A stretch of 64,000 nucleotides of DNA from an uncultured Acidobacteriota bacterium. Its GTDB lineage: Bacteria > Acidobacteriota > Thermoanaerobaculia > UBA5066. This document shows positions 26,674 through 43,900 of this stretch, piece after piece. A program made the translations under genes and the position numbers. Below the pieces are notes generated by a model. That model was not told where the DNA came from, ran no database searches, and was given only the letters and a program-made list of their open reading frames with translations. The stretch spans positions 1,024,001-1,088,000 of the forward strand of contig CAVZYA010000002.1 in assembly GCA_963779415.1 (NCBI GenBank), in the 5' to 3' direction. Each line of letters starts with the position of its first letter. The stretch's first letter is position 1.

Positions 26674-26753
26674 ACGGCACGACCCTGATGGCCGAACAGG
26701 CGTCGTCCTTCTGCTGATCGCCTCGAGAACCGTCTCGAGTTCGAGATGCTGCT
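26674..26753 (+). repeat. Diverged direct repeat, copy 1 (5' end of kinase gene; partner at 45126..45204)
   Basis: acggcacga(c/t)cctgatggccgaa...tctcgagttcgag(a/g)tgctgct shared, roughly 80% identity by eye. Confidence 0.8.
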
Positions 26754-28293
26754 CTCCGATCTCTCCTCGAGGTTCATCAACCTCCCTCCGCCAGAGGTGG
26801 ACAGCGAGATCGAAGACGCGTTAGGCCGTGTCTGCGAGCTTCTCGGCATCGATCTGGCGGTGCTCTGGCAGTGGTCGACTCCACGCCCGAATCTCCTCAC
26901 TCCTACCCATGGCTATCCGGGCCTGGACGGTCAGCAGCCTCCCGAGCCGCTGCACCAGGAGCACTTTCCCTGGGTGGTCCAGCAGATGCGGGCCGGACGC
27001 AGGCTCGCCCTCTCCTCGCTGGAGGAGCTGCCAGCGGAGGCCGCCGTCGACCTGCGGAGCGCCCGGCTTCGGGGCATCAAGTCGAATCTGAGCCTTCCGT
27101 TGTCGGTGGGGGGCGAGCCGCCCGTCGGCGTTTTGGCCTTCAACACCCTTCGGGCGGAGCGCGACTGGCCGGACGCACTGGTGAAGCGGCTGCAGCTGGT
27201 CGGGCAAGTCTTCACCAATGCGCTGGCCCGGAGGCGCGCCGACGAAGCACACCGCGCGAACGAGGCTCGCCTGGCGTCGGGAGCCGACCTCGCCGGCCTC
27301 GGGTTCTACGAGGTGGACTTCGCCAAGGGCGTCATGTATTTCGACGACCGGCTTCGTGACCTCTGCGGCTTTCCTCCGGAACGGGAACAGGGGCTCGAAG
27401 CCCTCGAATACTGGATGGAGCATCTCCATCCCGACGATCGCGCACACGTGCTGGACTTGCGCCAACAGCTGGAAGACGGGAGGCTGGAGCGCCTCTCTTT
27501 CGAATACCGCTACCTGCATCCGGACCGCGGGGAGACGTGGATCCAGCACCTGTCGGGCGTCGGCGCGCGAGATGCCGCCGGGCGCAGGGTCCGGACGTTC
27601 GGCGTCCTCCGCGACGTCACGGAGGGCAAGCGGGCCGAGGAGGCGCTGCACGACCTGAGCCGGCGCTTGATCCGGGCCCAGGAAGAGGAGCGCGCGCTGC
27701 TGGCTCGCGAACTGCACGACGACCTGACGCAGCGGCTCGCCGTGCTGGCGATCGACGTCGGCCGCGCCGAGCTTGCCGCGCCTGACGGGGACCAGACCGA
27801 AACGCTGCGGTCCGTTCGCGAGGGGCTCGTCCGCCTCAGCGAGGACGTCCATTCCCTCGCGTACCAGCTGCACCCGTCGGTCCTCGAGGAGCTGGGCCTG
27901 GCCGAGGCGCTCCGGACGGAATGCGAGCGGCTCGGACGCCAGGGCAGGGTCGACCTTTCGATAAAGCTCGATCCTCTGCCCGACGTCGTCGGAAGGGACG
28001 CCGCGCTCTGTCTCTTCCGCGTGGCGCAGGAGGCTCTGAACAACGTGATTCGCCATTCCCATGCGCTCGCCGCGACCGTCGACCTGCATCCGATGGACGG
28101 GGGCCTCCTCCTCGCCGTCCGGGACGATGGCATCGGCTTCGATCCGGCAGGCGGGAGAACGAGGAGGAGCCTCGGCCTGGCGAGCATGCGCGAACGCGTG
28201 AAGCTCTTGAACGGCACGCTCGACGTCGAGAGCGCGCCCGGCCAGGGCACCGCGATCGTCGCCTGGGTTCCCGCGGAAGAAGAGGCGAGATGA
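26688..28293 (+). CDS. Soluble sensor histidine kinase GAF-PAS-HisKA_3 (probable +1 error near 26710)
   Basis: HLHPDDR PAS, ARELHDDLTQ, VAQEALNNV, DDGIGF, SLGLASMRER. Confidence 0.92.
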
Positions 28294-28940
28294 GCCTCCC
28301 GCGCCGTCCCCGGGTGCTCCTCGCCGACGACCACCGCCTGGTGGCTGAGGCGCTGAAGAGCCTCCTCTCCCCCGAGTACGATCTGGTGGGCGTTGTGGAG
28401 GACGGGCGCGCGCTGGTCGAGGCGACCCGGACGCTGCGGCCGGACGTCATCGTTGCCGACGTCACCATGCCCCACCTCAACGGCATCGACGCCCTGATCC
28501 AGCTCCGGCAGGGCGGAGACCGGGTGCCCGTGGTCTTTCTCACCATGCACCGGGACGTGACCTTTGCTCGGCGCGCGCTCGACGCCGGAGCGTCGGGCTT
28601 CGTCCTCAAGCACTCGGCGCCGGCCGAGCTGATTTCGGCCATCCGCGCCGCGCTCGAGGGGAAGACCTACCTCACGCCCCAGCTCGCGGGGGAGGTTCTG
28701 GGAGCCATGAAGCAGGGGCCCGAAAAAGCCGCTGACCCGGTCGCCTCCCTCACGCCGCGGCAGCGCGAGGTCCTTCAGCTCCTGGCGGAGGGGCGTTCGG
28801 CCAAGGAGATCGCCTCGCGTCTCGGGATCTCGGCCCGGACGGTGGAGTTCCACAAGTACCAGATCATGGAGACGCTGGACCTCCACACGGGCGCCGAGCT
28901 GACCCACTTCGCCATCAAGCACGGCCTCGTCGAGCTCTGA
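28290..28940 (+). CDS. NarL-family response regulator (REC + LuxR HTH)
   Basis: LLADDH, ADVTMP, FLTMH, FVLK, LTPRQREVLQLLAEG, TVEFHK. Confidence 0.95.
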   Translation: MSLPRRPRVLLADDHRLVAEALKSLLSPEYDLVGVVEDGRALVEATRTLRPDVIVADVTMPHLNGIDALIQLRQGGDRVPVVFLTMHRDVTFARRALDAGASGFVLKHSAPAELISAIRAALEGKTYLTPQLAGEVLGAMKQGPEKAADPVASLTPRQREVLQLLAEGRSAKEIASRLGISARTVEFHKYQIMETLDLHTGAELTHFAIKHGLVEL

Positions 28941-29637: not shown

Positions 29638-29926
29638 GGCCCTGGCCCTCCCACGTGTCGAAGAGCCACGACCAGAAATCGCGCGTGCGCCCGAGGTATC
29701 GCGTGAGCCGCGGCCAGAGATCCCGGATCTCGCGGGGGCGGACGAACAGGAACACGTCGTCCGGCTTGGCCTGACGCATGAGCTTGCCGACCAAATAGGC
29801 GCGAACTTCCGGGTCAGGATCCGCAAGCCCCCTGCGGAACTGGTTCAGTGTGAGACCGCAGTCCCAGAGGAAGTAAGGACGATCCTGCGCGTCGGCCAGC
29901 CGCTCCGGAGGCGTGTAACTCAGCAC
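29624..29926 (-). CDS. Small putative antitoxin partner
   Basis: 100 aa, RPYFLWD...LMRQAKPDDVF...YLGRTRDFWSWL; overlaps the toxin start. Confidence 0.72.
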   Translation of the reverse strand: MLSYTPPERLADAQDRPYFLWDCGLTLNQFRRGLADPDPEVRAYLVGKLMRQAKPDDVFLFVRPREIRDLWPRLTRYLGRTRDFWSWLFDTWEGQGRVWR

Positions 29927-30036: not shown

Positions 30037-30168
30037 TCGTAGATTCCCTGCGGCGGGCCCCGTAATTCTCCGAGGTCACAACCGGCAGAAGCGCGGCTAG
30101 CCTCCGGCTCGTAGTTGGGTGCCGGCAGGAACCGCGACGAGCACGGTCGCGGGGAAGGAATCGCCCCA

Positions 30169-30612
30169 ATGCCCGAGAAGCCCCTGAGCTGCGTTCTCCT
30201 CGCGGACCGCCACCATGGCCTCACGGAAGGCGTCCGCGGGCTGCTCGAGACGGCGTTCGGAACGGTGGTCATGGTTGCCGACGAGGCGTCACTGCTGGAG
30301 GGGGCGGGCCGGCTGAGGCCCGACGTGGCGGTCGTGGATCTCTCGCTGGCAAGGGACAGCAGCCTGGGCTGGCTGCACGCGCTGAAGGACCGCTGTCCGG
30401 GTCTCAGGGTGATCGCCCTCAGCGTCCACGACGAAGCGAACATCCGCAGGGCGGCGCTCGAGGCGGGCGCCGATGCGTTCGTTCTGAAACGGGCGATCGT
30501 GACCGACCTCCTGCCGGCGGTCGACCGCCTCCGTGAGGAGGCCGAGGTGCCCTCGCCGGGGAGCGGAAGCGCGCCCGTTCCGGCAGGTGACGCGAGGAAG
30601 AACCCGCAATGA
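30169..30612 (+). CDS. Single-domain response regulator (atypical acidic pocket ADRH)
   Basis: VLLADRH, AVVDLSL, ALSVH, FVLKR. Confidence 0.85.
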   Translation: MPEKPLSCVLLADRHHGLTEGVRGLLETAFGTVVMVADEASLLEGAGRLRPDVAVVDLSLARDSSLGWLHALKDRCPGLRVIALSVHDEANIRRAALEAGADAFVLKRAIVTDLLPAVDRLREEAEVPSPGSGSAPVPAGDARKNPQ

Positions 30613-31374
30613 CGACGTCTTGCCGGAGCCTGCGTCGAGCCGTACTCGCGAGAGCGGCGGTCGCCTTGGCGATTTCTCTCATCGCATACCCCGCCGCCGC
30701 GGAGGACGACGCCTTCCGGAACACCGCCGAGATCTACCTGATGGCCCCGTCGATGTCGGGGACGGTCGGCTTCGGTCCGCTCGGTACGGAGATCGATGTC
30801 CCGTCCTCGAGGATCTTCGAGAACCTCAAGTTCGCGGTCCTCGCGGACTACCGGGGAGAGGCCCCGAAATGGGCCGTGGCGGCCGACGTCGTCTACATGA
30901 ACCTCGGGGGGAGCGGGACCGGCTCCCTGGACCGCGCCTCGGCCGACGTCGGCGTCGAGGAGTTCATCGTCGACCTCGCCGGGGCGTGGCGGTTCTCGAA
31001 GGCGTTCGAGCTTCTCGCGGGGGGGAGGTACACGCGGCTCCGGACGACCGTCACGTTGACGAGCCCCCTGAAAGTCCGCGACGCGAAGGTCGACGAGGAC
31101 TGGTTCGACCCGTTCGTCGGCGCCCAGGCGTTCCTGCCGCTCTCGAAGGCCCTCCTGCTCCAGCTCCGCGGTGATGTCGGCGGCTTCGGGGTCGGCTGCA
31201 AATTCACGTGGCAGGTGATGGCCCGCCTGAACTGGCAGGTCTCGCCGGTTCGTCCGCCTCGGCCTCGGCTACCGCTGGCTCGACCAGGACTTCGAGACGG
31301 GCTCGGGAGTCGACTACTTCCGATGGAAGGTCCTGACCTAGGGCCCGTTGATCGCGGCGGGCGTCACGTTCTAG
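30609..31374 (+). CDS. Putative outer-membrane beta-barrel protein (frameshift near 31250, in-frame TAG at 31339)
   Basis: Signal peptide, amphipathic strands, DWFDPFVG, LRGDVGGFGVG, GYRWL, terminal Phe (..GVTF*). Confidence 0.72.
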
Positions 31375-31499
31375 GAATTCGACGAGAAGGGGGGACCGCG
31401 AGGAGTGAAAGGAGATACGGAGTCATGACGAAGAAGACGAGCAAGAGCGGCGAACCGACCGCCTGTTCTCCCGGAGATCTCACGAGAAAGGAAATGACC

Positions 31500-32700
31500 A
31501 TGGCTGACAACGCGAAGCAGATCAAAGAGACCACGTTCGAAAACACGAAACTGAACCTCGTGAAGCTGGATTGGAAAGAGGTGTATTACACCAACTGTCC
31601 CCTCGTGTCCGCCAGCAACGTGGACCAGGAGCTGGGCTGGACGCGGGAGGAGTACAAGAAGATCGGCGTGAAGTACGCCTTCCTGCGCTCGACCCGCGAG
31701 AACGACTGGTATCCGCACTACATCCACAATCTCGACAACCTCATCCGCTTCGGCGGGCTCTTCCCGCCCGTCCAGGTTCACGCCGACATCCGCAGGACGA
31801 GGCTCCTGGGCGTGACGCACGTGCCGCGCGAAGGTGGCGTCATGATGGTGCGCGCCAAGGACGACATCTACCGGATGAGCGATCTGAAGGGGAAGAAGAT
31901 CGGGCTCTCGAAGAGCCTGAACCGGGTCAAGAACGACTGGTGGCGCATCCAGGAGCACCAGGGCATCGAGCTGATGCTCCGGTTGCACGGCATGACCATG
32001 AAGGACATCGAACTGGTGGAGTTCCCCTACGCGGATGACTGGTACAACGATCCGAAGATGCTGGATCCGATGGAGAATCCGTCCGAATTGTGGCTGAAGC
32101 GCGACCACAAGCGCGACCTCGCCTTCCGTCCGTTGGAAACGGCCCTGGAAAAGGGCGTCATCGATGCGCTCTATTGTCAAAGCAAAGTGTTGAGCGTTCT
32201 CGCCGAGGCAACCGGCAACTTCGTGTCCATTGAGGATTTGTCGAGGTATCCGGACTGGCGCCTGCAGGTGGCCAACATCCCGGCCGCGATCACGTGCAGC
32301 GACGTGATGGCCGAGAAGCACCCCGAGCTGGCCGTCACGTTCATGAAGGGCATGATCAAGGTGGGGCGCTGGGCCAACGAGCACAAGCACGCGGCGGCGG
32401 CGATCCTCGACAAGCAGACGTTTTACCTCGACGTCGAGGACACCTACCGGGGCATCAGAGACGTCGACATGGTGCCCAACCTGTCGCCGCAGAACCTGGC
32501 CTCCGTGGAGATCGGGAAGAACTTCATGCTGAAGCATGGCTACATCAAGCGCGACTTCGACGTGCAGAAGTGGGCGGCTCCGGAGTTTCTCGAGCAGGCG
32601 GCGCGGGAGCTCCTCGAAGCGCAGTGGAAGAAGACGACCACGGCGAAGCTCCCCGCGACGACTGAGCTGCAGGCGGCTTCCGCGGCGGGTCGGCTCGAGT
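31500..32700 (+). CDS. DszB-like (2'-hydroxybiphenyl-2-sulfinate desulfinase / SsuA-fold) protein; stop obscured by errors
   Basis: YYTNCP, PHYIHNLDNLIRFGG (H-x9-R-F-G-G), RTRLLG, DLKGKKIGLS match the DszB pattern; no signal peptide. Confidence 0.8.
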
Positions 32701-32718
32701 CGGAAGGGAGACAGATCC

Positions 32719-34416
32719 ATGAAAGTCATCATCGTGGGCGGAGTGGCGGGCGGAGCGTCGTGCGCGGCGCGGCTGCGCCGGCTGGACGAGAAGGCCGAGA
32801 TCGTGATGGTGGAACGCGGGCCGTACCTCTCATACGCCAACTGCGGGCTGCCGTACCACGTCTCGGGCGTGATCGCCGAAGGAGTCGAGCCTCCTCGTGG
32901 CCAACGAGCAGTACTTCAAGGCGAACCTCGGCGATCGACGCGCGGACGAACTGCGAGGCGGTCTCGATCGACCGGAAGAAGAAGACCGTCGGCCTGAAGA
33001 ACGTCAAGACCGGCGAGGTGACGACGGAGAAGTACGACAAGCTCGTCCTCTCGCCCGGGGCGCCTTCGGTCCGTCCGCCGCTTCCGGGGATCGACCTGCC
33101 CGGGATCTTCCAGGTGCGGACCGTGCCCGACGCGCGGGCGATCAAGGAGTGGATCGAGAAGGGGACGGTGTTCCTCGCCGGAATGTCCAACTACTCCGGG
33201 ATCCAGTTCGTCAAGCCGCCACGGCGCGCCGTCGTGATCGGCGGCGGGTTCATCGGCCTCGAGACGGCGGAGAACCTGATCCACGCGGGGTTCGAGGTGA
33301 CGCTCGTCGAGATGCTCGACCAGGTCCTCGCCCCGCTCGACCGCGAGTTCGCCCACCTCGTCGAGGAGCACCTGAAGAGGCACGGCATGACGGTCGCCCT
33401 CGGCGACGGCGTGGCCGGATTCACGCAGCTGGCGGGGGGCGCGATCGAGGTGAAGACGAAGTCCGGCAAGACGTACCCGGCCGACGTCGTGATCCTCGCC
33501 CTCGGCGTCCGGCCGGACACGACGCTCGCGAAGGCCGCCGGGCTCGAGATCGGCGAGCGCGGAGGGATCCGCGTCGACGACCAGATGCACACGAGCGACC
33601 CGGACATCTTCGCCGTCGGCGACGCCGTCGAGGTCAAGGACTGGGTGACGGGGCAGTGGAGCCTCGTGGCGCTCGCCGGGCCGGCGAACCGGCAGGGGCG
33701 GATCGCGGCCGACGTGATCGCCGGGCGCAAGTCCCGCTACCGCGGCACGCAGGGGACCTCGATCATCGGGCTCTTCGGCGGCGCCGCCGCCTGGACCGGC
33801 GTCAGCGAGAAGACGCTGAAGAAGAGCGGCGACACGGACTACGAGAAGATCTACATCTTCCCGAACTCGCACGCCGGCTACTACCCGGGCGCCAGGCTGA
33901 TCGGGCTGAAGTTCATCTTCCGGAAGTCCGACGGGCGGGTCCTCGGGGCGCAGGCGATCGGCGAGGACGCACCGGCGGTGGACAAGCGGATCAGCGCCCT
34001 CGCGATGGCCCTCCAGATGAAGGCGACGATCTACGACCTCGAGGAGGCCGAGCTCTGCTACGCGCCCCAGTTCGGCAGCGCGAAGGACGCGGTGAACTTC
34101 GCCGGGATGGTCGCGGCGGACGTCCTCCATGGGGACATGCCGCTCGCCCACTGGGACGAGACGAGAGGCGCGTTCCTCCTCGACGTGCGCCTGCCGGTCG
34201 AGCTCGTCGTCGAGAGCGTCCCCGGCGCCGTCAACATCCCGCTCCACCTGCTCCGCGCCCGCCTCGGCGAGGCTTCCGAAGGACCGGGAGATCCTCGTCA
34301 TCTGCCGCTCCGCCCAGCGCGCCTACTACGCGACGCGGGTCCTCCTGCAGAACGGATTCAAGGCCCGGAACATCTCGGGCGGCATGCTGTCGCGGGCCAT
34401 GCTTTCACCGCAGTAG
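32719..34416 (+). CDS. CoA-disulfide/persulfide reductase with C-terminal rhodanese domain (Cdr/Npsr type), frameshifted
   Basis: IIVGGVAGGASCAARLRR, SYANCGLPY redox Cys, IGGGFIGLE, FAVGD, ELCYAPQF, rhodanese ICRSAQRA. Confidence 0.92.
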
Positions 34417-34449
34417 CAAGACACTGAACAAGGAATAGGAGAACAAACG

Positions 34450-36870
34450 ATGACAACCGCAGCTGCTTCCGAGAAGAGCACCACCGGCCGCGTCAAGGCC
34501 GACAGCGCCCGGATCGACCGGCTGAAAGAACAGCTCCTGAGCACGCCTCAGGCACTGGACAACGAGCGGGTCCGGATCATGGCGGAGGTCTACGAGGGAA
34601 CCGCCGGATACCAGCAGATCATCCGCAGGGCCAAGTTCTTCTCCGAGCTGATCGAGAGGAAGAAGCTCTACATCGACGAGAACCTCATCGTCGGCAGCAT
34701 GGCGAGCAGCGTGAACGCCGTCTACACGTACCCGGAGTGGAACGTGGAGTGGATGAAGGCAGAGAAGACCGTCGAGAAATCGAAGACCCCGGAAGACCGC
34801 AAGGCGAACCAGTGGGCGCTCGAGTACTGGGACAAGTGGGCGCTGCGCCCGCGGGCCGACGAGATCTTCATCAAGAAGTACGGCTTCGATCCGGACCCGG
34901 TCTACAAGGCGGGCCTCATCGCCGAGTTCATGTCCTGGCCAGGTGGCGGAGGCAACCTCAACTATCCCCGGGTCTACCGGGAGGGCCTCGCCAGCATGAT
35001 CAAGGAGGTCGAGGAGCGGCAGAAGGCCCTCGACATGCGGCTGCCGAACGCGCCCAAGTTCTACTTCTACGAGGCCTGCCTGATCACGATGACGGCCGTC
35101 ATCCGGCTGGCCAACCGCTACGCCGAGCTGGCCCGGGAGATGGCGGCCAAGGAGAAGAACGCGGACCGCAAGGCCGAGCTCATTGGCATCGCCGAGACCT
35201 GCAAGTGGGTGCCTGAGCATCCTGCCCGTAATCTGAGAGAAGCGATCCAGGCTCATTTCTTCTGTCATATCTGCGCAGAGATCGAGCAGGTGGGTTGCGG
35301 CTACTCGGAGGCCTACCTGGGCCAGAACCTCGAGCCGTTCTACCAGCGTGACAAGGCCGCGGGGCTGATCGGTCCCGATGAGGCGACCTACCTGCTGCAG
35401 CTGCTCTTCGTCAAGCTGAACGAGATCGGGTACTACTACGGAGAGCAGGTGGCTCTGCAGAACTCCGCCGACCTTGGCCAGAGCATCACGGTCGGCGGCT
35501 ACACCGAAGACGGAGACGATGCCACCGCGGAGATGGACTACAACATTCTCGACGCCGCGAAGTACCTGAAGCTGCCCCAGCCGCCCCTCTCCTGCTGCTA
35601 CACGGAGAAGATGAGCGGCAAGTTCCTGGAGAAGGTCCTCGACGTCATCGACACCGGCGTCGGCATGCCGCAGTTCGTGAACGGCGACGTGATGATCAAG
35701 CGGGCCCTCAACCTCTTCGCAGGGAGCAAGAACGGTCTCACGCTCGAGAAGGCACGACGGACCTGTATCGGCGCGTGCGTGGGAAGCTACATCCCGTACG
35801 AGACCGGGCATCCGGTGGAGGGGCAGCCGAACCTCGGAAAGGTCCTCGAGCTGACGCTGAACAACGGCTTCGACCCCCGGACCAAGGTGCAGATCGGCCC
35901 CAAGACCGGGGATCCCGAGAAGTTCAAGGACTTCGAGGAGCTGTACGCGGCTTTCGAAAAGCAGCTCCAGTTCTGCGAGGACACGCTCCGCCGCGAGGCA
36001 TGGATCGCGAGCATCCTCTGCGCCGAATACCTTCCCGTCGCCTGGCGCTCCATCCTGACGAAGGGGTGCATCGAGAGCGGAACCGAGGTCTGGAACGGCG
36101 GCGCCAACTACTACACGGTTGCCCAGATCACCGTCGGTGGCGTGGACGCCGCCAACGGGCTCATGGCGGTGAAGAAGCTGGTGTACGACGACAAGAAGCT
36201 GACGATGGCCGAGCTGAAGAAGGCGCTGGCGGCGAACTTCGAGGGCGAGTACGAGAAGGTCCGGAAGCTCTGCTACGAGGCCCCCAAGCACGGAAACGAC
36301 ATCCCCGAGGTCAACAAGTTCGTTCGCCGTGTGTACAACTCCATCTTCCAGGCGTTCCAGAACGTGGACGGCGGCGGTAACTACATCAGCCCGGACATCA
36401 GATCGGCCCCCGACTCCTACACCAAGAGCATCCACAACCTGATGGGTCTGGTGACGGGCGCCCTGCCGACCGGCAAGAAGGCCGGCGTAGCCCTCTGCGA
36501 TGGCAGCCTGTCCGCCATGCCCGGCACCGACGTCAACGGGCCGACCGCGCTGGTCATGTCCGCGGCAAAGGGCGCGGACGCGGTCAAGTTCACCGCGACG
36601 CACATGAACATGAAGCTCCCTCCCAACCAGCTCAAGACCCGCAAGGGCCGAGAGACCCTGCTGAACCTCGTCAAGACCTATATGGACAACGACGGCTATC
36701 ACATCCAGTTCAACGTGCTGGACACCAACATCCTGAAGGACGCGCAGAAGCACCCGGAGAAGTACCGCGACCTGGTCGTGCGGGTGGCGGGGTTCAGCGC
36801 CTTCTTCACGAAGCTGCACCCGGGTGTGCAGAACGAGATCATCGCCCGCACCGAGCAGAGCTTCGGTTGA
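34450..36870 (+). CDS. Glycyl radical enzyme of unassigned specificity (806 aa)
   Basis: C-terminal HIQFNV...LVVRVAGFSAFF (Gly781), Cys loop TCIGACVGS (Cys443), VPEHPARN, ITVGG, PKHGND. Confidence 0.95.
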   Translation: MTTAAASEKSTTGRVKADSARIDRLKEQLLSTPQALDNERVRIMAEVYEGTAGYQQIIRRAKFFSELIERKKLYIDENLIVGSMASSVNAVYTYPEWNVEWMKAEKTVEKSKTPEDRKANQWALEYWDKWALRPRADEIFIKKYGFDPDPVYKAGLIAEFMSWPGGGGNLNYPRVYREGLASMIKEVEERQKALDMRLPNAPKFYFYEACLITMTAVIRLANRYAELAREMAAKEKNADRKAELIGIAETCKWVPEHPARNLREAIQAHFFCHICAEIEQVGCGYSEAYLGQNLEPFYQRDKAAGLIGPDEATYLLQLLFVKLNEIGYYYGEQVALQNSADLGQSITVGGYTEDGDDATAEMDYNILDAAKYLKLPQPPLSCCYTEKMSGKFLEKVLDVIDTGVGMPQFVNGDVMIKRALNLFAGSKNGLTLEKARRTCIGACVGSYIPYETGHPVEGQPNLGKVLELTLNNGFDPRTKVQIGPKTGDPEKFKDFEELYAAFEKQLQFCEDTLRREAWIASILCAEYLPVAWRSILTKGCIESGTEVWNGGANYYTVAQITVGGVDAANGLMAVKKLVYDDKKLTMAELKKALAANFEGEYEKVRKLCYEAPKHGNDIPEVNKFVRRVYNSIFQAFQNVDGGGNYISPDIRSAPDSYTKSIHNLMGLVTGALPTGKKAGVALCDGSLSAMPGTDVNGPTALVMSAAKGADAVKFTATHMNMKLPPNQLKTRKGRETLLNLVKTYMDNDGYHIQFNVLDTNILKDAQKHPEKYRDLVVRVAGFSAFFTKLHPGVQNEIIARTEQSFG

Positions 36871-36881
36871 CATTCAGCGGA

Positions 36882-36918
36882 GCCGGTACAGTGGGGCGGC
36901 CCGCCCCGCCGTACCGGC
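36882..36918 (+). terminator. GC-rich stem-loop directly after the GRE gene (terminator or mRNA-stabilising hairpin)
   Basis: gccggtacagtggggcgg-c-ccgccccgccgtaccggc followed by ccattctt; weak U tract. Confidence 0.6.
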
Positions 36919-37027
36919 CCATTCTTCACGAGCAGCCCGGCACGGTTGGACGAAGGACGACGACGGACAGCGACCGCACGAACACGAGAGGCAATTTGTG
37001 ATCAAAGAGATCGGCCATGGGAGTTTC

Positions 37028-38173
37028 ATGAGACGCATCGCAATCAACGTCGGCGCTGGCTACGTCCCGGGGCTGAATGCCGTGGTCAAGGGCGCGGCCC
37101 TGGCGGCGGGCAGGATGGGATGGGAGATCGTCGGCATCCGGGACGGATTCGACGGGCTGCTGCACCCGGAGCGCTACCCGGACGGCGGCCTGCTGACCCT
37201 CAGCCCCGAGCTGGTCGAGAACATCGATCCGGCCGGCGGGGGCTTCCTGGGCCAGTCGGGCCGGGTCGACCCGTTTCACGTCCGCCGGGTCAACGAAGAC
37301 GAGATGGTCGAGGAAGTCGACATGTCCGACGAGCTCCTTGCCGCGTTCCGGAAGGAGCAGCTCGATGCGCTGATCTCCGTCGTCGGGGGGCGCGGGCTGA
37401 GCATCCTCTACAAGCTCCACCGCAAGGGGCTCCATACGGTCTGCGTCCCCCGGTCGATCGAGAACGACATCGCCGCGACCGCGGTCTCTTTCGGCTTCAA
37501 CAGCGCGCTCAGCTTCACCATCGAGATGCTGGACCGGGCCCGTCAGGCGGCCCAGGCGGCCCGCAAGATCGGGGTGGTGGAGGTCCTGGGAGAGCAGTCC
37601 GGGTGGGTAGCGCTCCAGGCTGCCATCGCCGTCTGCGCCGATGCGGTCCTGATTCCCGAGATCCTCTGCGACCTCAAGGTGGTGGCGTCGCGGCTGAAGG
37701 ACAAGGTGTCGCTCCGGAGGCCGTACGGCCTGGTGGTGGTGGCCGAAGGGGCCAGGTTCCTCGAGACCTCGAAAGCCGAGGCGAAGCCTTCCTCCCTCAA
37801 GGCCTCTCTGTCGCCGCTGGCGACCGGGGATGCCAGCGAGCACGTCATCCACAGGTCGGGTCAGGCCGCCGAGAAGGTGGCGAACGGGCTGCAGCTTCTG
37901 CTCGCCGAGGAAACCTATCCGCTCGTCCTGGGGCCCTGGGTCAGGGGCGGCACTCCGACCGCGGTCGACCGCCAGCTGGGCCTCGGTTACGGGGCCGGAG
38001 CCGTGCGCGCCCTGAAGGCCGGCAAGAACGGGATGATGGTGGCGTTCGTTCCCCCGGACATGAAGTTCGTGCCGCTGACGGAAGCGATCAACAAGGTCAG
38101 GACCGTACCTGCGGACAGCGAGTTCATGCAGATCGCCCAGAGCCTCGGCATCTGCCTCGGGAAGGAGCTGTGA
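37028..38173 (+). CDS. PfkA-fold protein with substituted catalytic motifs
   Basis: Overall PfkA layout (PGLNAVV, GIRDGFDGL, VVVAEG, RGGTPT..DR) but GGRGL, PRSIEND and EVLGE replace GGDG, PKTIDND and EVMGR. Confidence 0.85.
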   Translation: MRRIAINVGAGYVPGLNAVVKGAALAAGRMGWEIVGIRDGFDGLLHPERYPDGGLLTLSPELVENIDPAGGGFLGQSGRVDPFHVRRVNEDEMVEEVDMSDELLAAFRKEQLDALISVVGGRGLSILYKLHRKGLHTVCVPRSIENDIAATAVSFGFNSALSFTIEMLDRARQAAQAARKIGVVEVLGEQSGWVALQAAIAVCADAVLIPEILCDLKVVASRLKDKVSLRRPYGLVVVAEGARFLETSKAEAKPSSLKASLSPLATGDASEHVIHRSGQAAEKVANGLQLLLAEETYPLVLGPWVRGGTPTAVDRQLGLGYGAGAVRALKAGKNGMMVAFVPPDMKFVPLTEAINKVRTVPADSEFMQIAQSLGICLGKEL

Positions 38174-39135
38174 TGAGCACGCCCGTGAACCCATCCGCTC
38201 CGACCGGCTTCGTTCTGAACATCCAGCGCTATTGCAGTCACGACGGCCCGGGTATCCGCACGAACGTATTCCTCAAGGGTTGCTCGCTCCGCTGCAAGTG
38301 GTGCGGCAACCCCGAGAGCATCGCCTTCAAGCCCGAACTCTCCTACGACCCCAGGAAGTGCACCGGCAGGAAGGAATGCGGCGTCTGCCTGAAGCCTCCC
38401 TTCCCGGAAGGCGCCTTCTATGTGCCGGAAAACGCTGCCGACGACAAGGTCAAGGTCAACTGGGACCTGGCGACGGGCTGCGACGAGGCGATGGTCGCGC
38501 TGTGCGAGCCGGGCGCTCTCGAGATGTTCGGCAAGCGAATGACGGTGGACGAGGTCCTGGACGAGGTAGAGAAGGACAGCTCCTTCTACCGGAACACCGG
38601 GGGTGGCATGACGCTGAGTGGCGGCGAGTGCCTGCTGCAGCCGGACTTCGCGGCCGCCCTGCTGAAGGGGGCCCACGACCGCGGCTTCAACACGGCGATC
38701 GAAACGGCGTGCAACGTTCCCTGGGCGTACGTGGAGAAGGTGCTGCCCCACGTCGATACCGTCCTCCACGACCACAAGATGACGATCCCGGAGCGCCACA
38801 AGAAGTGGGTCGGAGTGAGTAACGAGCGGATCCTCACGAACTTCAAGAGAGCCTACGAGACGTTTCCAAACGCGGACTTCATCGCCAGGACGCCGCTGAT
38901 TCCGGGCATAAACGCCGACGAGGAGCACATCCGGGCCGTCCTGGCGTTCATTCGCCCGCACAAGAACGTCATCGACTACGAGCTGCTGCCGTACCACCGC
39001 TTCGGCCTCGGCAAGTACGAGCTGCTGGGCGAGGTGTACGAGCTGGACGACTACAAGACGCCGTCGGACGACTTGGTCAAGCACCTCCAGGCCATCATCG
39101 ACGAGGCCTTCGGCCGCAGCGGAGGCACCAAGTGA
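38173..39135 (+). CDS. Glycyl-radical enzyme activating enzyme (radical SAM)
   Basis: HDGPGIRT, CSLRCKWC (CX3CX2C), NPES, SGGE, IETA, LLPYH; TGATG-coupled to upstream gene. Confidence 0.96.
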   Translation: MSTPVNPSAPTGFVLNIQRYCSHDGPGIRTNVFLKGCSLRCKWCGNPESIAFKPELSYDPRKCTGRKECGVCLKPPFPEGAFYVPENAADDKVKVNWDLATGCDEAMVALCEPGALEMFGKRMTVDEVLDEVEKDSSFYRNTGGGMTLSGGECLLQPDFAAALLKGAHDRGFNTAIETACNVPWAYVEKVLPHVDTVLHDHKMTIPERHKKWVGVSNERILTNFKRAYETFPNADFIARTPLIPGINADEEHIRAVLAFIRPHKNVIDYELLPYHRFGLGKYELLGEVYELDDYKTPSDDLVKHLQAIIDEAFGRSGGTK

Positions 39136-40280
39136 CACCTAACGAAGACATCTACGAAAGGCTGGCGGCGGCGCTGGAGGCGCTCCCGCACGGCTTCGCC
39201 CGCACGCCTTCGGGCGTGGAGATCAAGTTGATGAAGAAGGCCTTCACGGAGGAGGAGGTCCGGTTGGCCGGCCAACTCACCCGCACCCCCGAAACGGCTG
39301 CCGAGATCGCCAAGCGGTTGGGCCGGGATGTGGCCGAGGTCACCGCGCTGCTCGAGAGGCTGATTCCGCTGGGCCTGGTCTCGCTTCCCGGAAACACGGC
39401 GGGGGGGGGCGTTCTGAAAGAGGAAATGAAAGGCGAGAGGAGATACCGGCTGCGCCCGTTCATGGTGGGCTGGTACGAGGCCGGCATGCGCCGCCTTGAC
39501 AAGGAGTTCGCCGAGCTGTTCGAGCAGTTCATCACCGAAGGCGGGGGCGAGCGTGTCTTCGCGCCGCGACCGGGACTGCTGGGCGTGGTGCCGGTGCGAG
39601 GTTCGCTCAAGCCCGAGTATGTCAAGCGCGAGCCGCATATAGACATTGACGCCCACTTCCAGCGGCACGAGCGCTTTCTCGTCATCCCCTGCGTCTGCAA
39701 ACGGGAGCGGGAAGTCCTGGGGGACTCGTCCTGCGGGAAGCCCATGAAGCGTTGTGGATTCGTGGGACTGCCGCCCCAGACCCCGCTGGGCGAGACCGTG
39801 CTGGGCCGGGAGGAGGCGTCCAAGCTCCTCACCGAGCTCGGCGAGCAGGGTCACGTCAACCTCGCGTTCTACGGCTTCACCATGTTCGCGGATGCGCCGC
39901 AGTTCATGGGCACGTGCAACTGCTGCTCCTGCTGCTGCGGGATACTCCACGGCCCGAAGCTGGCCGGCCTGGAGTCCCACCAAGGGCCGCAGCCGTCGAA
40001 CTTCCGCGCTGTCATCGACCCGGAGGCGTGCATTGCATGCGGCGTCTGCCAGGAGCGTTGTCCGGTGGACGCGATCTCCGACATCACGGAGCCGGGCCCG
40101 ATCGAGGGGAAGTCACGCGTAGAGCGGGCAAAGTGCATCGGATGCGGAGTGTGCGTGATCGGCTGCGCATCCGACGCGATTGTGATGGAGCCGGTCTCCC
40201 CGGAGGAGTGGTTCCACGTCCCCTCCAGCATGGCGGAGTGGGAAGAGATGCGGCTGAAGAACTTGGCGTCACAGAAATGA
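39132..40280 (+). CDS. Multi-Fe-S protein (N-terminal wHTH-like region, Cys-rich middle, C-terminal 2x[4Fe-4S])
   Basis: PCVCKR, CNCCSCCC, CIACGVCQERCP, CIGCGVCVIGC. Confidence 0.88.
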   Translation: MTPNEDIYERLAAALEALPHGFARTPSGVEIKLMKKAFTEEEVRLAGQLTRTPETAAEIAKRLGRDVAEVTALLERLIPLGLVSLPGNTAGGGVLKEEMKGERRYRLRPFMVGWYEAGMRRLDKEFAELFEQFITEGGGERVFAPRPGLLGVVPVRGSLKPEYVKREPHIDIDAHFQRHERFLVIPCVCKREREVLGDSSCGKPMKRCGFVGLPPQTPLGETVLGREEASKLLTELGEQGHVNLAFYGFTMFADAPQFMGTCNCCSCCCGILHGPKLAGLESHQGPQPSNFRAVIDPEACIACGVCQERCPVDAISDITEPGPIEGKSRVERAKCIGCGVCVIGCASDAIVMEPVSPEEWFHVPSSMAEWEEMRLKNLASQK

Positions 40281-41086
40281 GCGGGTGCAGCGCCCTCCTC
40301 TCTGGTCTTGCCATCCTCCTTGCCGCGGCCTTGCCCGCTCCGGTGAGCGCCCAGACTCAAGCGGAACCCGGCGGAGTGACGGCCCAGACGGAGGCCGACG
40401 CGAACAACCCCCTCGCCAAAGTCCAGGCATTCAACCTCCACGACTACTACGTCCCGACGCTCTCGGAGACTCCGGACCAGACCGCCAACACGTTCTGGCT
40501 CCGGTACGCACAGCCGGTTGGAGGGTTCCTGATCCGGGCGTCGCTGCCGCTGTCCCGGGTACCGGCGGGCGACGGCACCACGACGTCCGGGCTCGGCGAC
40601 TTCAATGCCTTCGCCGCCTACCTGTTCGACACAAAGCCGGGAGTGAGCTTCGGCCTGGGGCCGCAGGTGACGGCCCCCACCGCGACGGCTCACGAGACCG
40701 GGACAGGGAAGTGGCAGGGCGGCCTCGCCGCGGTCTACTTCGACGCGACGTCGCAGAGGGTCCAGTGGGGCGGGCTCGTCACCTGGCAGGCGGACTTCGC
40801 CGGCCCTTCCAACCGGCCCGGTACGAACGTCCTCGCCGTCCAGCCCTTCTACTTCATCCAACTCGGAAAGGGACTGTACGTGAGGAGCACGGCGGTGATG
40901 GCCTTCAATCTGGAGAATGGCTCGTACAACGTGCCCGTCGGCCTCGGCCTCGGCATGGTGATCCCGGCGGGCCGGACGGTCCTCAACGCGTTCGTGGAGC
41001 CGCAGTTCACGGTTCTTTCGCATGGCCCCGGCCAGCCGGAAGTGCAGATCTTCGTCGGCCTTAACACGCAGTTTCTGAAGAAGTAG
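40277..41086 (+). CDS. Putative outer-membrane beta-barrel/transporter protein
   Basis: Signal peptide, ANNPLA, SGLGDF, GLGPQVTAPTA, TGKWQGG, NVPVGLG. Confidence 0.75.
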   Translation: MSGCSALLSGLAILLAAALPAPVSAQTQAEPGGVTAQTEADANNPLAKVQAFNLHDYYVPTLSETPDQTANTFWLRYAQPVGGFLIRASLPLSRVPAGDGTTTSGLGDFNAFAAYLFDTKPGVSFGLGPQVTAPTATAHETGTGKWQGGLAAVYFDATSQRVQWGGLVTWQADFAGPSNRPGTNVLAVQPFYFIQLGKGLYVRSTAVMAFNLENGSYNVPVGLGLGMVIPAGRTVLNAFVEPQFTVLSHGPGQPEVQIFVGLNTQFLKK

Positions 41087-41106: not shown

Positions 41107-41991
41107 ATGTCGACCACCCTGACGCTCCTGTTCAAGATCACACTGGCGATCTTCATGGCGGGCAGCCTGCTGGAGATGGGCCTCCGGCTCAACCTCCAGG
41201 AGGCCTTCCGGGGGCTTCGCAACGTGCGCTTCGTGGCCTACACGCTGGTCTGGAGCTTCGTCCTCGTCCCCGCCCTCGCCTACGGGATCACACTCGTCAT
41301 CCCGCTGCAGGCCCCCTATGCCATCGGCCTCGTCCTTCTGGGCATGGCGCCCTGCGCGCCCTTTGTCCCCGGCCTCGTGGACAAGGCCAAGGGGGACCTT
41401 GGCTTCACGGCGGCCTTCATGCTCCTCGCCTCGGTCGGCACCGTCGTGTGCATGCCCTTTACGGTGCCTCTTCTCACCACGGGCCTGACCGCCAGCGCCT
41501 GGGCGATCGCCAAGCCCCTCCTGATCGTCGTCCTCCTGCCCATGGCAATCGGCGTCATCATCCGTCGTCAGGCGGATGCCTTCGCCTCCAAACTGCTCCC
41601 CTTCGCGAAGAAGCTCGCAGGGATCTTCGGCCTCCTCTGGTCCGTCCTGTGCCTCGTCATCTACGGGAAGGGCCTGCTCGGCGTGGCGGGCGAGTTCGCC
41701 CTCGCTTCGGAACTTCTCTTCTTCTGCGTGATCTTCCTGGGCACCTACTGGCTGGGCTTCGGCCTGCCCTATGAGCAGAAGATCGTGCTGAGCGTCGGGG
41801 TCACGACCCGGAACCTCGGCGCCTGTCTCACGCCGCTCCTCTCGGTGCCGGACATGGACCAGCGGGCCACGCTCATGATCGTGCTGGCGCTCCCCATCAT
41901 GGTCATCGTCTCGTTGCTGGGGGCGAAGTGGCTGGGCCCGGCGGCCGAACCGGGGTCCAAGACACCTGCGCCCGACCAGGCAAGTGCTTGA
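41107..41991 (+). CDS. Bile acid:sodium symporter (BASS/SBF) family transporter
   Basis: MGLRL, FVLVPALAY, GLVLLGMAPCAP, KAKGD, TRNLG; about 9 TMs. Confidence 0.88.
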   Translation: MSTTLTLLFKITLAIFMAGSLLEMGLRLNLQEAFRGLRNVRFVAYTLVWSFVLVPALAYGITLVIPLQAPYAIGLVLLGMAPCAPFVPGLVDKAKGDLGFTAAFMLLASVGTVVCMPFTVPLLTTGLTASAWAIAKPLLIVVLLPMAIGVIIRRQADAFASKLLPFAKKLAGIFGLLWSVLCLVIYGKGLLGVAGEFALASELLFFCVIFLGTYWLGFGLPYEQKIVLSVGVTTRNLGACLTPLLSVPDMDQRATLMIVLALPIMVIVSLLGAKWLGPAAEPGSKTPAPDQASA

Positions 41992-42082: not shown

Positions 42083-43900
42083 ATGAGTGAAGGTGCTCCC
42101 GGCGTGCTTGCCATGATCAGCTGGCCCCGCCCGTTCGTGGGACTCCGGGGCATCAGGCTGGCCGACGTCCCCCGCGAGGTCTCGGCGGGCGTCACGCTGG
42201 CCGCCCTCATGATCCCGCTCAACATCGGTTACGCGCAGGTGGCCGGCCTGCCGCCCGTGGCCGGCCTCTACGCGGCCATCATTCCCCTGGCCGTCTTCGC
42301 CCTGCTGGCGAGTTCGCGCCACCTGGTGACGAGCCCCGACGCCTCCATGGCCACCCTGGTCGGTGCCACTCTGGTCGCCTTCGCTGCGCCCGGAGACCCG
42401 TTGCGCCTGCAGTACGCCCTCGCCCTGGCGATGGTCTGCGCGCTGCTGTTCTTCCTCTTCTGGATTTTCCGGTTGGCGTTCCTCGCCAACTTCCTGTCGC
42501 GCGCCGTGATGGCGGGGTTCATCACCGGGCTCGGGGTCGAGGTGTTCACGAACCAGGTGCGAAAGATCCTCGCCGCCCCCCACGTGGCGGGCGCCGCGAC
42601 AGGCGTGCTGGCGGCGGCCGAACGGATCAAGGACGTCATGGCGAGCTCGGTGAACACCGAGGGCTACTTCGTGGAGGTCGTCGCCCTGATCCACTCGATC
42701 CCCCGGGCCAACCTTTACTCGGTGGCGATCGGCGTCGCCGCCTTTCTGACCGTCCGCCTTCTCAAGCGCTTCGCGCCCAGGATCCCGGGGGCGCTGGTGG
42801 CGCTGGGGGTGCTCACGCTCGCCGTGGCTTACTTCAACCTCGCCCAAAAGGGGGTCGGCGTCCTCGGCGCGATTCCCTCGGGTCTTCCGACCCTGACCCT
42901 GCCGGCCATCCCTGCCGCCGACTACCTGAGGCTGTTTCCCGGCGCCATGGCGATTGTGGCGATCCTGCTGTGTGAGGGCCTGCTCGTGGTCCGCAGCTAC
43001 AGCAGCAAGTACGGATACAAGGCGGACGGCGATCAGATGTTGTTCGCCTACGGCGCGGCAAACCTCGCGGCCGGGTTTACCGGCTCGCTACTGACCGGCA
43101 ACAGCCCCTCCCGCTCGGCAGCGATGGACTCCTCGGGAGCGAAGAGCCAGCTGCCGAGCCTGGTGGCGGCCGGGACGATCGCCGTGGTCATGCTGTTCTT
43201 CACCGACATGCTCGCGTACCTGCCGAATGCGGCCCTGGCGGGGATCGTCGCCAATGCGGTGCTCTCCCTGATCGAGGTCCACGAGCTCGGCGAGCTGTGG
43301 CGGATGCGGCGTTCGGAGTTCTGGATCGCCGCCACCTGCCTCCTGAGCGTGCTGGCTCTGGGGCCGCTGCGCGCCGTCCTCATCGCCTTTCTCCTGTCCA
43401 CGATCGACGTCATCCGGCGGGCGTCCCGCCCGGAGACGGCGGCGCTGCTCGAAGCCGCGGACGGCAGCCATTTCGCCGCCACGGACCTGGGCCAGGGCGT
43501 CAGTCCGTCGGGCCTGGTCGTCTATCGGTTCGGCGCCCCGCTCTACTTCGCCAACGCGACCCTGTTTCTCGACGAGGTCGAGCAACTGATCGCCCGGGCG
43601 CCGACCCCGGTCCGCTGGTTCGTGCTGGACGCGCAGGCGATGGTCGACGTCGACACCACCGGCGCGGAGGTCCTTCGGCAGGCAATCACCTTGCTGACCG
43701 GGCGCGGCATCGTCTTCGCCGTCAGCCGCGCCGATCGGTCCTTCCGCTCCTGGCTGGAGCGATACGGGCTCATGAAGCTGATTGACCAGAAGCGCTTCTA
43801 CCCGACCAACCGCCACGCCGCGGCGGCGTTTCGCGAGGACTCGGGGCGCGAGGCGGAGCCGCCCGGAACGGCCTCGCCGCCTCTCCCTCAGGGTACGTGA
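42083..43900 (+). CDS. SulP family anion transporter with STAS domain
   Basis: AGVTLAALMIP..GYAQVAGLPPVAGLYA, GAKSQL, GAPLYFANA, VDTTG. Confidence 0.95.
   Translation: MSEGAPGVLAMISWPRPFVGLRGIRLADVPREVSAGVTLAALMIPLNIGYAQVAGLPPVAGLYAAIIPLAVFALLASSRHLVTSPDASMATLVGATLVAFAAPGDPLRLQYALALAMVCALLFFLFWIFRLAFLANFLSRAVMAGFITGLGVEVFTNQVRKILAAPHVAGAATGVLAAAERIKDVMASSVNTEGYFVEVVALIHSIPRANLYSVAIGVAAFLTVRLLKRFAPRIPGALVALGVLTLAVAYFNLAQKGVGVLGAIPSGLPTLTLPAIPAADYLRLFPGAMAIVAILLCEGLLVVRSYSSKYGYKADGDQMLFAYGAANLAAGFTGSLLTGNSPSRSAAMDSSGAKSQLPSLVAAGTIAVVMLFFTDMLAYLPNAALAGIVANAVLSLIEVHELGELWRMRRSEFWIAATCLLSVLALGPLRAVLIAFLLSTIDVIRRASRPETAALLEAADGSHFAATDLGQGVSPSGLVVYRFGAPLYFANATLFLDEVEQLIARAPTPVRWFVLDAQAMVDVDTTGAEVLRQAITLLTGRGIVFAVSRADRSFRSWLERYGLMKLIDQKRFYPTNRHAAAAFREDSGREAEPPGTASPPLPQGT

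Follow-up and report, generated by a model that had tools for sequence, protein, structure and literature searches.

Glycyl radical enzyme (GRE) classes, leaving the ribonucleotide reductases aside, rely on a Cys-x-Glu loop unless they are pyruvate formate-lyase (PFL), decarboxylases or X-succinate synthases, and a GRE of eliminase-like fold in which that glutamate is a glycine raises the question of how it is activated and what it does. Such a gene lies at 34450-36870 on the forward strand of a 64,000-nucleotide stretch of contig CAVZYA010000002.1 (assembly GCA_963779415.1, positions 1,024,001 to 1,088,000), from an uncultured Acidobacteriota bacterium of the lineage Thermoanaerobaculia; UBA5066. 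This whole stretch is referred to below as the window. Comparison of the gene, its homologues and their loci indicates that it very probably encodes a true GRE, belonging to a family that is uncharacterised and has an obligate partner, which resembles phosphofructokinase (PFK) but appears to have lost the kinase motifs (pseudo-PFK). New chemistry for the GRE is plausible, and candidate reactions are weighed below. Background on GREs is taken from the available portions of a June 2026 review, which distinguishes seven GRE classes (PMC13450708), and that on the HypD active site from the available portions of PMC7077986.

The glycyl radical enzyme and its active site

The gene is an open reading frame (ORF) of 806 residues with the Pfam domains PFL-like (3.8e-147) and Gly_radical (1.9e-27). 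Its RVxG motif (R778-V-A-G781-F), which an earlier note on this DNA had read from the letters, is present and invariant in 120 of 121 homologues. This alignment combines the GRE with its 120 best matches, themselves 78-92% identical to the query, from a word-indexed protein search in which 587 of 8000 scored proteins reached E <= 1e-50. The AlphaFold2 (AF2) model, built from a 34-row alignment, has a pLDDT of 92 and a pTM of 0.92, and the predicted fold superimposes on HypD, propanediol dehydratase (PD), glycerol dehydratase (GD) and CutC with TM-scores of 0.90-0.92 at 29-33% identity. The best matches overall are HypD 6VXC, 1R8W, 5I2G, CutC, HpyG/HpzG, HplG, YbiW and PflD (E 4.9e-126 to 1e-100, TM 0.90-0.92, 27-33% identity). 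With these eliminases and isomerases the GRE shares its Gly loop, the placement of its Cys loop, a 10-stranded barrel and a dedicated radical S-adenosylmethionine (SAM) activase, encoded nearby; it differs in lacking C-x-E (Gly445), in having a PFK-like partner and in the reduced Fe-S insert of its activase. No solved GRE exceeds 33% identity to it. The earlier note had set identity above about 60% to a characterised GRE against the idea of novelty, and the best solved relative stops at 33%. On the sequence evidence the gene is a functional-looking GRE with its own activase, in a tight uncharacterised family.

In HMMER alignments with the five best solved GREs (HypD 6vxc, glycerol dehydratase 1r8w, propanediol dehydratase 5i2a, CutC 9f3w and HpzG 8iof), Cys443 (A-C-V-G-S) aligns with the catalytic cysteine and Gly445 occupies the column of the C-x-E glutamate. 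Both are conserved, Cys443 in 120 of 121 homologues and Gly445 in 117 (three have Pro and one His), which bears out the earlier assignment of Cys443, followed by V-G, as the putative thiyl residue. All characterised GRE eliminases and isomerases retain CXE according to the available text of the review (PMC13450708). The segment that reads (S/T)(P/L)(G/A)R(L/F/V/M)DQ in the five solved enzymes is GCGYSEAYLGQ (residues 282-292) in the GRE and near-invariant among the 121 sequences, so that here too the earlier reading stood. Within this block lies Cys283, conserved in 120 of 121 homologues, which the note had missed; the weight that it gave to a second loop cysteine was misplaced. Cys439 is conserved in 100 of the 121 sequences and is Ala in the other 21, hence not essential, and on that ground was ruled out as a catalytic partner. 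C272, C283, C443, C540 and C608 are among the invariant cysteines of the GRE.

The pocket of HypD is formed by Phe152, Arg156, His160, Asp278, Lys326, Ser334, Asp339, Phe340, Cys434, Glu436, Tyr450 and Thr645, among which His160, Asp278, Asp339 and Glu436 are essential for acid-base chemistry (PMC7077986). When this pocket is mapped through a HypD equivalog in the family alignment (P0162, 1426.6 bits vs a cut-off of 1100), the counterparts are, in the same order, Phe160, Trp163, Gly167, Cys283, Gly331, Ser339, Leu342, Gly343, Cys443, Gly445, Gln459 and Lys659, each of them conserved in all 17 family rows or in 16 of them. The mapping exchanges His160 for Gly167, Asp278 for Cys283, Asp339 for Leu342 and Glu436 for Gly445, and all four acid-base residues of HypD are thus lost in the family. 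By the same mapping, Cys283 would occupy the position of the HypD residue that contacts the leaving group, and Lys659 the carboxylate-binding position.

An ordinary eliminase or dehydratase that draws its base from elsewhere, or a decaying paralogue, would agree with the overall fold, with the eliminases as best matches and with the presence of a genuine HypD in the same genome. It would have to accommodate the replacement of all four acid-base residues by others that are themselves invariant; and identities of 67-97% over many phyla, together with a frame that is intact and an activase and partner of its own, point to strong purifying selection, not decay. We consider this explanation very improbable. 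The HypD equivalog of the genome (1195.9 bits vs 1100) is located at 7730-10090 (-) of locus L141. It and the present GRE are the only Gly_radical matches in the window's genome (4.36 Mb, 3 contigs, 92% complete), and the same Gly_radical search found no canonical PFL there.

The GRE falls below every NCBIfam functional cut-off, scoring 495.5 bits with the HypD model (cut-off 1100), 472 with the PFL2-3 subfamily (678.2), 443.9 with IAD (1100), 421.7 with HpsG (1000), 389.7 with HpfG (1000), 382.2 with CutC (1050), 360.6 with HPAD (1150) and 80.3 with PFL (994.2). These low scores, a cysteine pair that is not adjacent, the absence of C-x-E and the exchange of the four HypD acid-base residues agree with the earlier opinion that the enzyme is neither a PFL nor a classical eliminase. 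When 1.84 billion representatives at 50% identity were searched exhaustively with HMMER, 7632 proteins reached E <= 0.001. The nearest full-length representatives are P0123 (52% identical) and P0125 (47%), followed by others at about 42%; these too are without the glutamate (C-V-S, C-V-P, C-T-S), and most retain Cys283. An NCBIfam scan was confined to representatives of at least 740 aa (107 of 135, the other 28 being left out), and of these 107 nearest full-length proteins only P0162 (HypD) and P0182 (HpsG type) reached an equivalog cut-off. In a FastTree phylogeny of 111 sequences (four family members and the 107 representatives of at least 740 aa, shorter ones being omitted), the GRE family clusters with P0125, P0123 and P0126, all C-V-S with Cys at 283 (support 0.99-1.0), and only two members of the enclosing 17-member clade (support 1.0) have C-V-E.

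The earlier note had proposed kinship with the single-subunit arylacetate decarboxylases, and this is not supported: the IAD model gives 444 bits against a cut-off of 1100, AAD 7e7l scores 313 bits compared with 425 for HypD, and the tree separates the two groups, the IAD-like P0139, P0154 and P0163 joining the GRE family only at a 42-member node. A radical decarboxylase of a carboxylic acid, whether Kolbe-type as in HPAD or by hydrogen-atom transfer as in PAD and IAD, can still be envisaged. Lys659 would bind the carboxylate, no base would be needed if the thiyl oxidised it, and the DszB-like protein encoded upstream would be an unrelated relative in fold. The arylacetate decarboxylases provide a precedent for a non-Glu loop (PAD, C-x-Q) and for a single subunit (AAD, IAD, PAD), and an anionic substrate is likely to be common to them and the GRE. 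At the position two after the loop cysteine HPAD has Glu505, IAD Glu502 and PAD Gln484 (Cys482-x-Gln484), and AAD is without a small subunit (PMC13450708); the GRE differs from HPAD, IAD and PAD in having Gly445 there. Also in keeping with decarboxylation are the location of Lys659 at the carboxylate-binding position and the glycines at pocket positions 167, 331, 343 and 445, which leave space for a bulky, for example aromatic, group. Set against this are the ranking of AAD 7e7l below seven eliminase and isomerase structures, the HPAD score of 361 bits where 1150 is required, the placement of the IAD-like proteins in the tree, and the lack of a second pocket cysteine and of a PFK-like partner in the arylacetate decarboxylases; decarboxylation leaves the invariant Cys283 and a gene context of rhodanese, CoA-disulfide reductase (CoADR) and DszB-like proteins unexplained. 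We regard it as improbable. P0154, a 50% representative that is 35% identical to the GRE, has the loop C-I-G-G-C-V-G, as a decarboxylase relationship might suggest, but keeps GRFDQ and is without Cys283; the C-V-G loop thus arose more than once.

The PFK-like protein and the activase

A scan of loci, one genome per species, found 113 relatives, and all locus counts given here refer to the best 80 of these 113. Among these 80, the PFK-like gene is present in 75, and the five without it (L035, L036, L053, L056, L073) all end within the GRE gene. The activase is present in 71, the further four without it (L018, L024, L030, L044) ending within or just past the PFK-like gene. All 75 loci with downstream sequence have the GRE followed by the PFK-like gene. 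As the loci that lack either gene are cut by contig ends, the triad of GRE, PFK-like protein and activase is invariant wherever it is visible. The earlier statement that no small-subunit gene is adjacent was correct for the HpdC and BssBC types, in that no gene for a HiPIP-type small subunit lies beside the GRE and the 157-nt gap after its stop codon contains a hairpin only; what it overlooked is the obligate PFK-like gene between GRE and activase. The GC-rich hairpin immediately follows the GRE stop codon, ahead of the PFK-like gene, and is possibly a partial terminator or a transcript stabiliser, which may give a higher GRE-to-activase expression ratio. Further downstream, the stop codon of the pseudo-PFK gene overlaps the start of the activase gene (TGATG).

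The PFK signature motifs bind Mg-ATP and fructose 6-phosphate. Compared with the solved PFK 1zxx, the pseudo-PFK has GAGYVPG for GGDAPG, GGRGL for GGDGS, SIEND for TIDND, LGE for MGR and LGPWVRGG for LGHMQRGG, and its best NCBIfam PFK score is 241 bits against a cut-off of 430.55. Judged by these motifs, the partner protein would be catalytically degenerate. Second or third PFK-like paralogues, about 55-68% identical to that of the window, occur in loci L016, L025, L028, L066, L068, L071 and L074. These extra copies adjoin copies of the Fe-S protein described below, so that PFK-like proteins may pair with ferredoxin-domain proteins generally.

The activase shows a change of its own. In most GRE activases a ferredoxin-like insert contains eight cysteines (PMC13450708), but in an alignment of 26 family activases only C63, C69, C72 and C111 of the insert are invariant, with C103 in 22 of the 26. 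Four invariant cysteines are enough for one auxiliary cluster. The best NCBIfam score of the activase is 344 bits with the HpsH model, below the cut-off of 430. Three activases were used as comparators, that of the HypD of the same genome and two from a sister clade, and in each the CX2CX2CX3C motif is present twice in full, with no PFK-like gene separating GRE from activase. The HypD activase (L141 10095-11021 (-)) is canonical, with an 8-Cys insert and no PFK-like gene. In the sister clade (L087, L088), whose GREs are about 50% identical to that of the window, a canonical activase directly follows the GRE, again without a PFK-like gene. Among 54 metagenome loci obtained with a sister-clade query, a PFK-like gene was found only in L094, which is an 84%-identical true family member.

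Modelling of the complex suggests a physical association of the two proteins. The predicted activase:PFK-like complex scored 0.70 (median of 0.72, 0.47 and 0.70), compared with 0.02 for the best of three controls. Of solved complexes, 58 of 80 attained a score of 0.70, as did two of 110 mismatched pairs; these counts hold only roughly because own alignments were used. At least 61% of contacts agree between runs, and the partner pLDDT is at least 83. On the activase side the predicted interface comprises residues 37-40 (the CX3CX2C loop), 80-101, 155, 181-183 and 214-219, and segment 80-101 is the one that replaces the lost cluster site. On the PFK-like side it comprises residues 81-96, an acidic loop with invariant D81, F83, R86 and E96, together with 122-129, in the degenerate GGDGS region, and 354-359. 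We know of no solved complex of an activase and a partner that the prediction could have memorised. PFL-AE is the sole activase structure in the available text of the review (PMC13450708).

From these models it is somewhat probable that the pseudo-PFK binds the activase. Weighing against such binding, one run scored only 0.47 and the score is the model's own confidence; in addition, the predicted interface covers the CX3CX2C loop of the activase, which is the face expected to meet the Gly loop of the GRE, and this could reflect either regulation or an artefact. If the prediction is right, an activase that has lost one of its two auxiliary [4Fe-4S] sites would dock a degenerate PfkA-fold protein, and the pseudo-PFK would be a structural or regulatory subunit of activation.

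Accessory subunits are known from other GREs. HPAD gamma, BSS beta and gamma, and MASS beta, gamma and delta regulate radical installation or solubility (PMC13450708). These HPAD, BSS and MASS subunits, small Fe proteins of HiPIP- or rubredoxin-like type, attach to the GRE itself, whereas the partner here is a 381-aa PfkA-fold protein without cysteine motifs that is predicted to bind the activase. In the X-succinate synthases small Fe-S beta and gamma genes stand beside the alpha gene; none flank the GRE, which has a CoADR-rhodanese gene and the PFK-like gene instead, and BSS 4pkc matches it at 282 bits, below the eliminases. Full-text literature searches found no paper that deals with this GRE family or describes a PFK-like protein as the partner of a GRE or activase, though subscription papers and supplementary cluster tables may list the cluster; a term search of the available text of PMC13450708 for phosphofructokinase, soil, Acidobacteri* and sulfinate gave zero matches.

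Distribution, neighbouring genes and expression

In the 80 loci the GRE is 67-97% identical and comes from at least nine phyla. By record title, carriers belong to Acidobacteriota, Planctomycetota, Bacteroidota, Verrucomicrobiota, Nitrospiraceae, Gemmatimonadota, alpha-, beta-, gamma- and 'delta'-proteobacteria, Actinomycetota, Aminicenantes and Balneolaceae. Within the window's own genus, family and order, the GRE was found in three of 41 genomes including that of the window, and in three of 30 of the high-quality ones. High conservation combined with such patchy occurrence makes the locus resemble a horizontally mobile accessory island. One homologue, 80% identical, is labelled Flavihumibacter profundi, a cultured carrier, and with such a carrier on record the hypothesis is directly testable.

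The gene order in the window is sensor kinase, LuxR regulator, AbiEii-like gene (opposite strand), receiver, outer-membrane protein, DszB-like protein, CoADR-rhodanese and GRE, followed by the PFK-like protein, activase, winged-helix (wHTH)/Fe-S protein, a further outer-membrane protein, BASS and SulP (Table 1). The domains of the response regulator begin at residue 132 of its ORF, and its true start is probably near 28.3 kb.

Table 1. Features around the GRE gene in the window. Locus counts are of the best 80 of 113 loci and were made by tblastn within about 10 kb.
Feature	Position	Strand	Evidence and occurrence
Sensor histidine kinase (GAF-PAS-HisKA_3-HATPase)	26689..28293	+	Pfam; homologue upstream of GRE in many loci
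NarL/LuxR-type response regulator	27921..28940	+	Pfam Response_reg 1.2e-26, GerE 5.6e-18; relatives in other loci
AbiEii-type nucleotidyltransferase toxin ORF	28975-29826	-	Pfam 3.4e-13; between LuxR regulator and receiver gene
Stand-alone receiver-domain protein	30115..30612	+	Pfam Response_reg 8.4e-13
Putative outer-membrane protein, signal-peptide-like N-terminus	30609..31340	+	No Pfam match; 9/80 loci
Cytoplasmic DszB-like (SsuA/NMT1-fold) desulfinase homologue	31425..32700	+	Best PDB match DszB 2de2; 39/80 loci
CoA-disulfide-/persulfide-reductase-like flavoprotein fused to rhodanese	32719..34416	+	Pyr_redox_2, Pyr_redox_dim; 50/80 loci
GRE	34450..36870	+	806 aa; Gly781, Cys443 (C-V-G), Cys283, Lys659
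GC-rich hairpin	36879..36920	+	-36.1 kcal/mol, z -4.95; equalled by 0/200 shuffles
PfkA-fold pseudo-PFK, 381 aa, very probably an obligate partner	37028..38173	+	Pfam PFK 3.2e-59; below NCBIfam cut-offs
GRE-activating radical SAM enzyme, reduced ferredoxin-like insert	38173..39135	+	NCBIfam PFLE_PFLC 313.9 bits vs 174
Winged-helix, Cys-run and 2x[4Fe-4S] ferredoxin protein	39132..40280	+	Fer4 families, weak HVO_A0114/TrmB; 30/80 loci
Second putative outer-membrane protein	40277..41086	+	No Pfam match; 6/80 loci
BASS/SBF-family anion:sodium symporter	41107..41991	+	Pfam SBF 8.5e-22; 38/80 loci
SulP-family anion permease with STAS	42083..43900	+	Sulfate_transp 2.9e-78; sulP 314.5 bits vs 380; 28/80 loci

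The closest solved relative of the DszB-like protein is DszB itself, a 2'-hydroxybiphenyl-2-sulfinate desulfinase (2DE2/2DE3), at 22% identity (sequence E 9.7e-12); in Foldseek, DszB structures occupy ranks 1-3 with TM-scores of 0.61-0.74 to the predicted model. All of the 33 sequences compared have C35, H75, R85 and G88, which align with DszB Cys27, His60, Arg70 and Gly73, and we take His60, Arg70 and Gly73 to serve in sulfinate binding in DszB. Cys27 is named in the title of PDB entry 2DE3. The window protein has no signal peptide, and its context is anaerobic, unlike that of the DszABC monooxygenase pathway. A crotonase gene is often next after the DszB-like gene in family loci. Several of the DszB-like proteins (L022, L024, L043, L068, L076) share an N-terminal extension with a cysteine (SGDPTACSPGDL), and that of the window carries it (31425-31493) if it begins at the alternative start codon at 31425. 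The CoADR-rhodanese scores 327 bits with the NCBIfam CoA-disulfide reductase model, below the cut-off of 579, and the Atlas clusters of the Fe-S protein bear generic 4Fe-4S names only.

Locus L061 is 97% identical, and set against it the window carries one inserted base at each of 32682, 32875 and 32932; the insertions at about 32875 and 32932 are absent from contigs of RNA libraries too. A GH63/MGH1-like glycoside hydrolase of about 960 aa, not present in the window, stands beside the GRE module in 28 of the 80 loci and in several phyla (for example L017 3923-6811 (-)). Alongside a rhodanese and a thiolase, the sister-clade loci L087 and L088 encode a TRAP transporter, a sigma-54 activator and a protein related to the Fe-S protein of the window.

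RNA-library contigs from three runs of one sediment study, with at least 92% likeness, cover the DszB-like, CoADR, GRE, PFK-like, activase, Fe-S and SulP genes. The contigs come from many relatives and DNA carry-over is possible, so that expression of the island in anoxic sediment is no more than hinted at; both outer-membrane genes and BASS have next to no coverage, which carries no weight.

Proposed chemistry and significance

With the acid-base residues gone, base-assisted heterolytic elimination would be impossible, and purely homolytic catalysis becomes the most likely course. That the substrate is an organosulfur anion has a little less than an even chance in our estimation, and the main reason in its favour is that an anion carrier, a sulfur-transfer domain and a CoA enzyme are found together again, independently, in the sister clade. 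The C-S lyases IslA, IseG and HpsG are the sole GRE class tied to organosulfur anions, and the window locus also has genes for sulfur metabolism and anion transport; the solved lyases 7KQ3, 5YMR and 6LON are 26-29% identical to the GRE.

In the mechanism that we tentatively propose, Lys659 would hold the anionic substrate and the Cys443 thiyl would take a hydrogen atom from it. The substrate radical would fragment by beta-scission, with a sulfur-centred radical (HS/RS, sulfite or sulfonyl type) as the leaving group. The thiol of Cys283, at the leaving-group position, would quench the sulfur radical and return the radical to Cys443 in a two-cysteine relay. The unsaturated acid product would be fed through CoA chemistry by the crotonase, and the sulfur product, reduced or oxidised, would be handled by the CoADR-rhodanese (persulfide), the DszB-like protein (sulfinate to sulfite) and the SulP and BASS anion carriers. 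Base-free radical cleavage of an organosulfur compound, taken as a whole with the partner and activase, is a possibility that we hold at somewhat less than even strength, while this specific beta-scission mechanism with two cysteines is less likely still.

Two cysteines in catalysis with a radical relay, as proposed here, would be a point in common with PFL and TdcE, and the same residues could serve a different reaction. In a PFL-like acyl transfer, the thiyl would add to the carbonyl of a 2-oxoacid or thioester, Cys283 would carry the acyl group and CoA would accept it, with the CoADR keeping CoA reduced and the crotonase or thiolase processing the acyl-CoA. Two invariant active-site cysteines, the CoA-linked neighbours (the CoA-disulfide-reductase-like flavoprotein and the crotonase, with a thiolase in the sister clade) and a genome whose Gly_radical matches are this GRE and a HypD equivalog, with no canonical PFL, would all suit such an enzyme. 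In PFL, however, the two cysteines are adjacent in the loop, while residues 283 and 443 of the GRE lie on separate elements and the loop reads C439-I-G-A-C443; a pair of cysteines within the Cys loop is known only in PFL and TdcE, as far as the available text of the review goes (PMC13450708). The PFL model also gives only 80 bits against 994, and PFL structures align over the C-terminal domain only (1h16, 1.1e-21), which makes acyl transfer quite unlikely.

The cysteines and the redox neighbours could alternatively belong to a GRE reductase. Class III ribonucleotide reductase depends on thioredoxin for re-reduction of a cysteine pair. By analogy, a cysteine pair of the GRE would become oxidised with every turnover and be re-reduced by the CoADR-rhodanese or the Fe-S protein, and the enzyme might, for example, reduce a sulfonate to a sulfinate that is then hydrolysed by the DszB-like enzyme. 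Several cysteines are invariant (C272, C283, C443, C540, C608), a disulfide reductase of the pyridine-nucleotide type and a poly-Fe-S protein are often encoded nearby, and a DszB-like enzyme needs a sulfinate, which anoxic metabolism seldom supplies. But no PFL-like GRE reductase is known in the available text of PMC13450708, and the CoADR is not within 10 kb in 30 of the 80 loci; a reductase is thus a quite unlikely solution.

Several observations weigh against cleavage of an organosulfur anion by the proposed route. The chemistry is deduced from what the enzyme lacks, and the conserved core consists of the GRE, the PFK-like protein and the activase only, the sulfur-flavoured neighbours being found in 28 to 50 of the 80 loci. 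SulP and BASS are not sulfur-specific, for SulP also matches the DauA and BicA models and BASS matches PanS. The DszB fold is shared by the non-desulfinases SsuA and Thi5, and the model of the DszB-like protein is of moderate confidence (pLDDT 79). The insertion at 32682 removes the stop codon of the DszB-like gene and those at 32875 and 32932 break the CoADR-rhodanese frame; the three together account for a stop-free frame of 1279 codons (30591-34427) over three genes, and are either assembly consensus errors or real pseudogenisation. The GH63/MGH1-like hydrolase is unexplained by an organosulfur substrate and may point to one derived from a sugar. Lastly, the sulfonate anchor of the C-S lyase HpsG is Arg183, Gln187 and Arg672 (PMC13450708). 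Mapped through an HpsG-type equivalog (P0182, 1142.6 bits vs a cut-off of 1000), these positions are Trp163, Gly167 and Asp655, invariant in 17 of 17 family rows, so that both the CXE glutamate and the Arg/Gln/Arg anchor of IslA, IseG and HpsG are absent from the GRE. A sulfonate substrate, if there is one, would therefore have to be bound differently than in those enzymes, and an IslA-type sulfonate site was rejected on the strength of this replacement.

In its most specific form the proposal is of an eighth GRE class, in which base-free homolytic beta-scission of a C-S (or C-X) bond would proceed through a relay between Cys443 on the loop and Cys283 on a barrel strand, and in which the activase would have exchanged one [4Fe-4S] cluster for a pseudo-PFK. 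We put this forward as speculative and, in so complete a form, doubtful. More broadly, the family has a new kind of accessory protein, and its chemistry is most plausibly base-free radical C-S cleavage.

A highly conserved GRE family whose carriers are bacteria of soil and sediment from at least nine phyla, and which has dropped its acid-base residues and gained a second pocket cysteine, points to unexplored radical chemistry. Installation of the glycyl radical is the main practical bottleneck of the field (PMC13450708), and a dead sugar kinase at the activase would be a new means of controlling it. Should the eighth-class proposal be true, the pseudo-PFK would set two precedents, since no GRE activase would previously have had a known protein partner and the accessory subunits of the GRE superfamily would until now all have been metalloproteins. 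If an organosulfur anion is the substrate, the family would fill a gap in the anaerobic sulfur cycle of soils, peat and sediments, and the complete proposal, if correct, would describe an unrecognised route of anaerobic organosulfur turnover in soil and sediment bacteria of many phyla.

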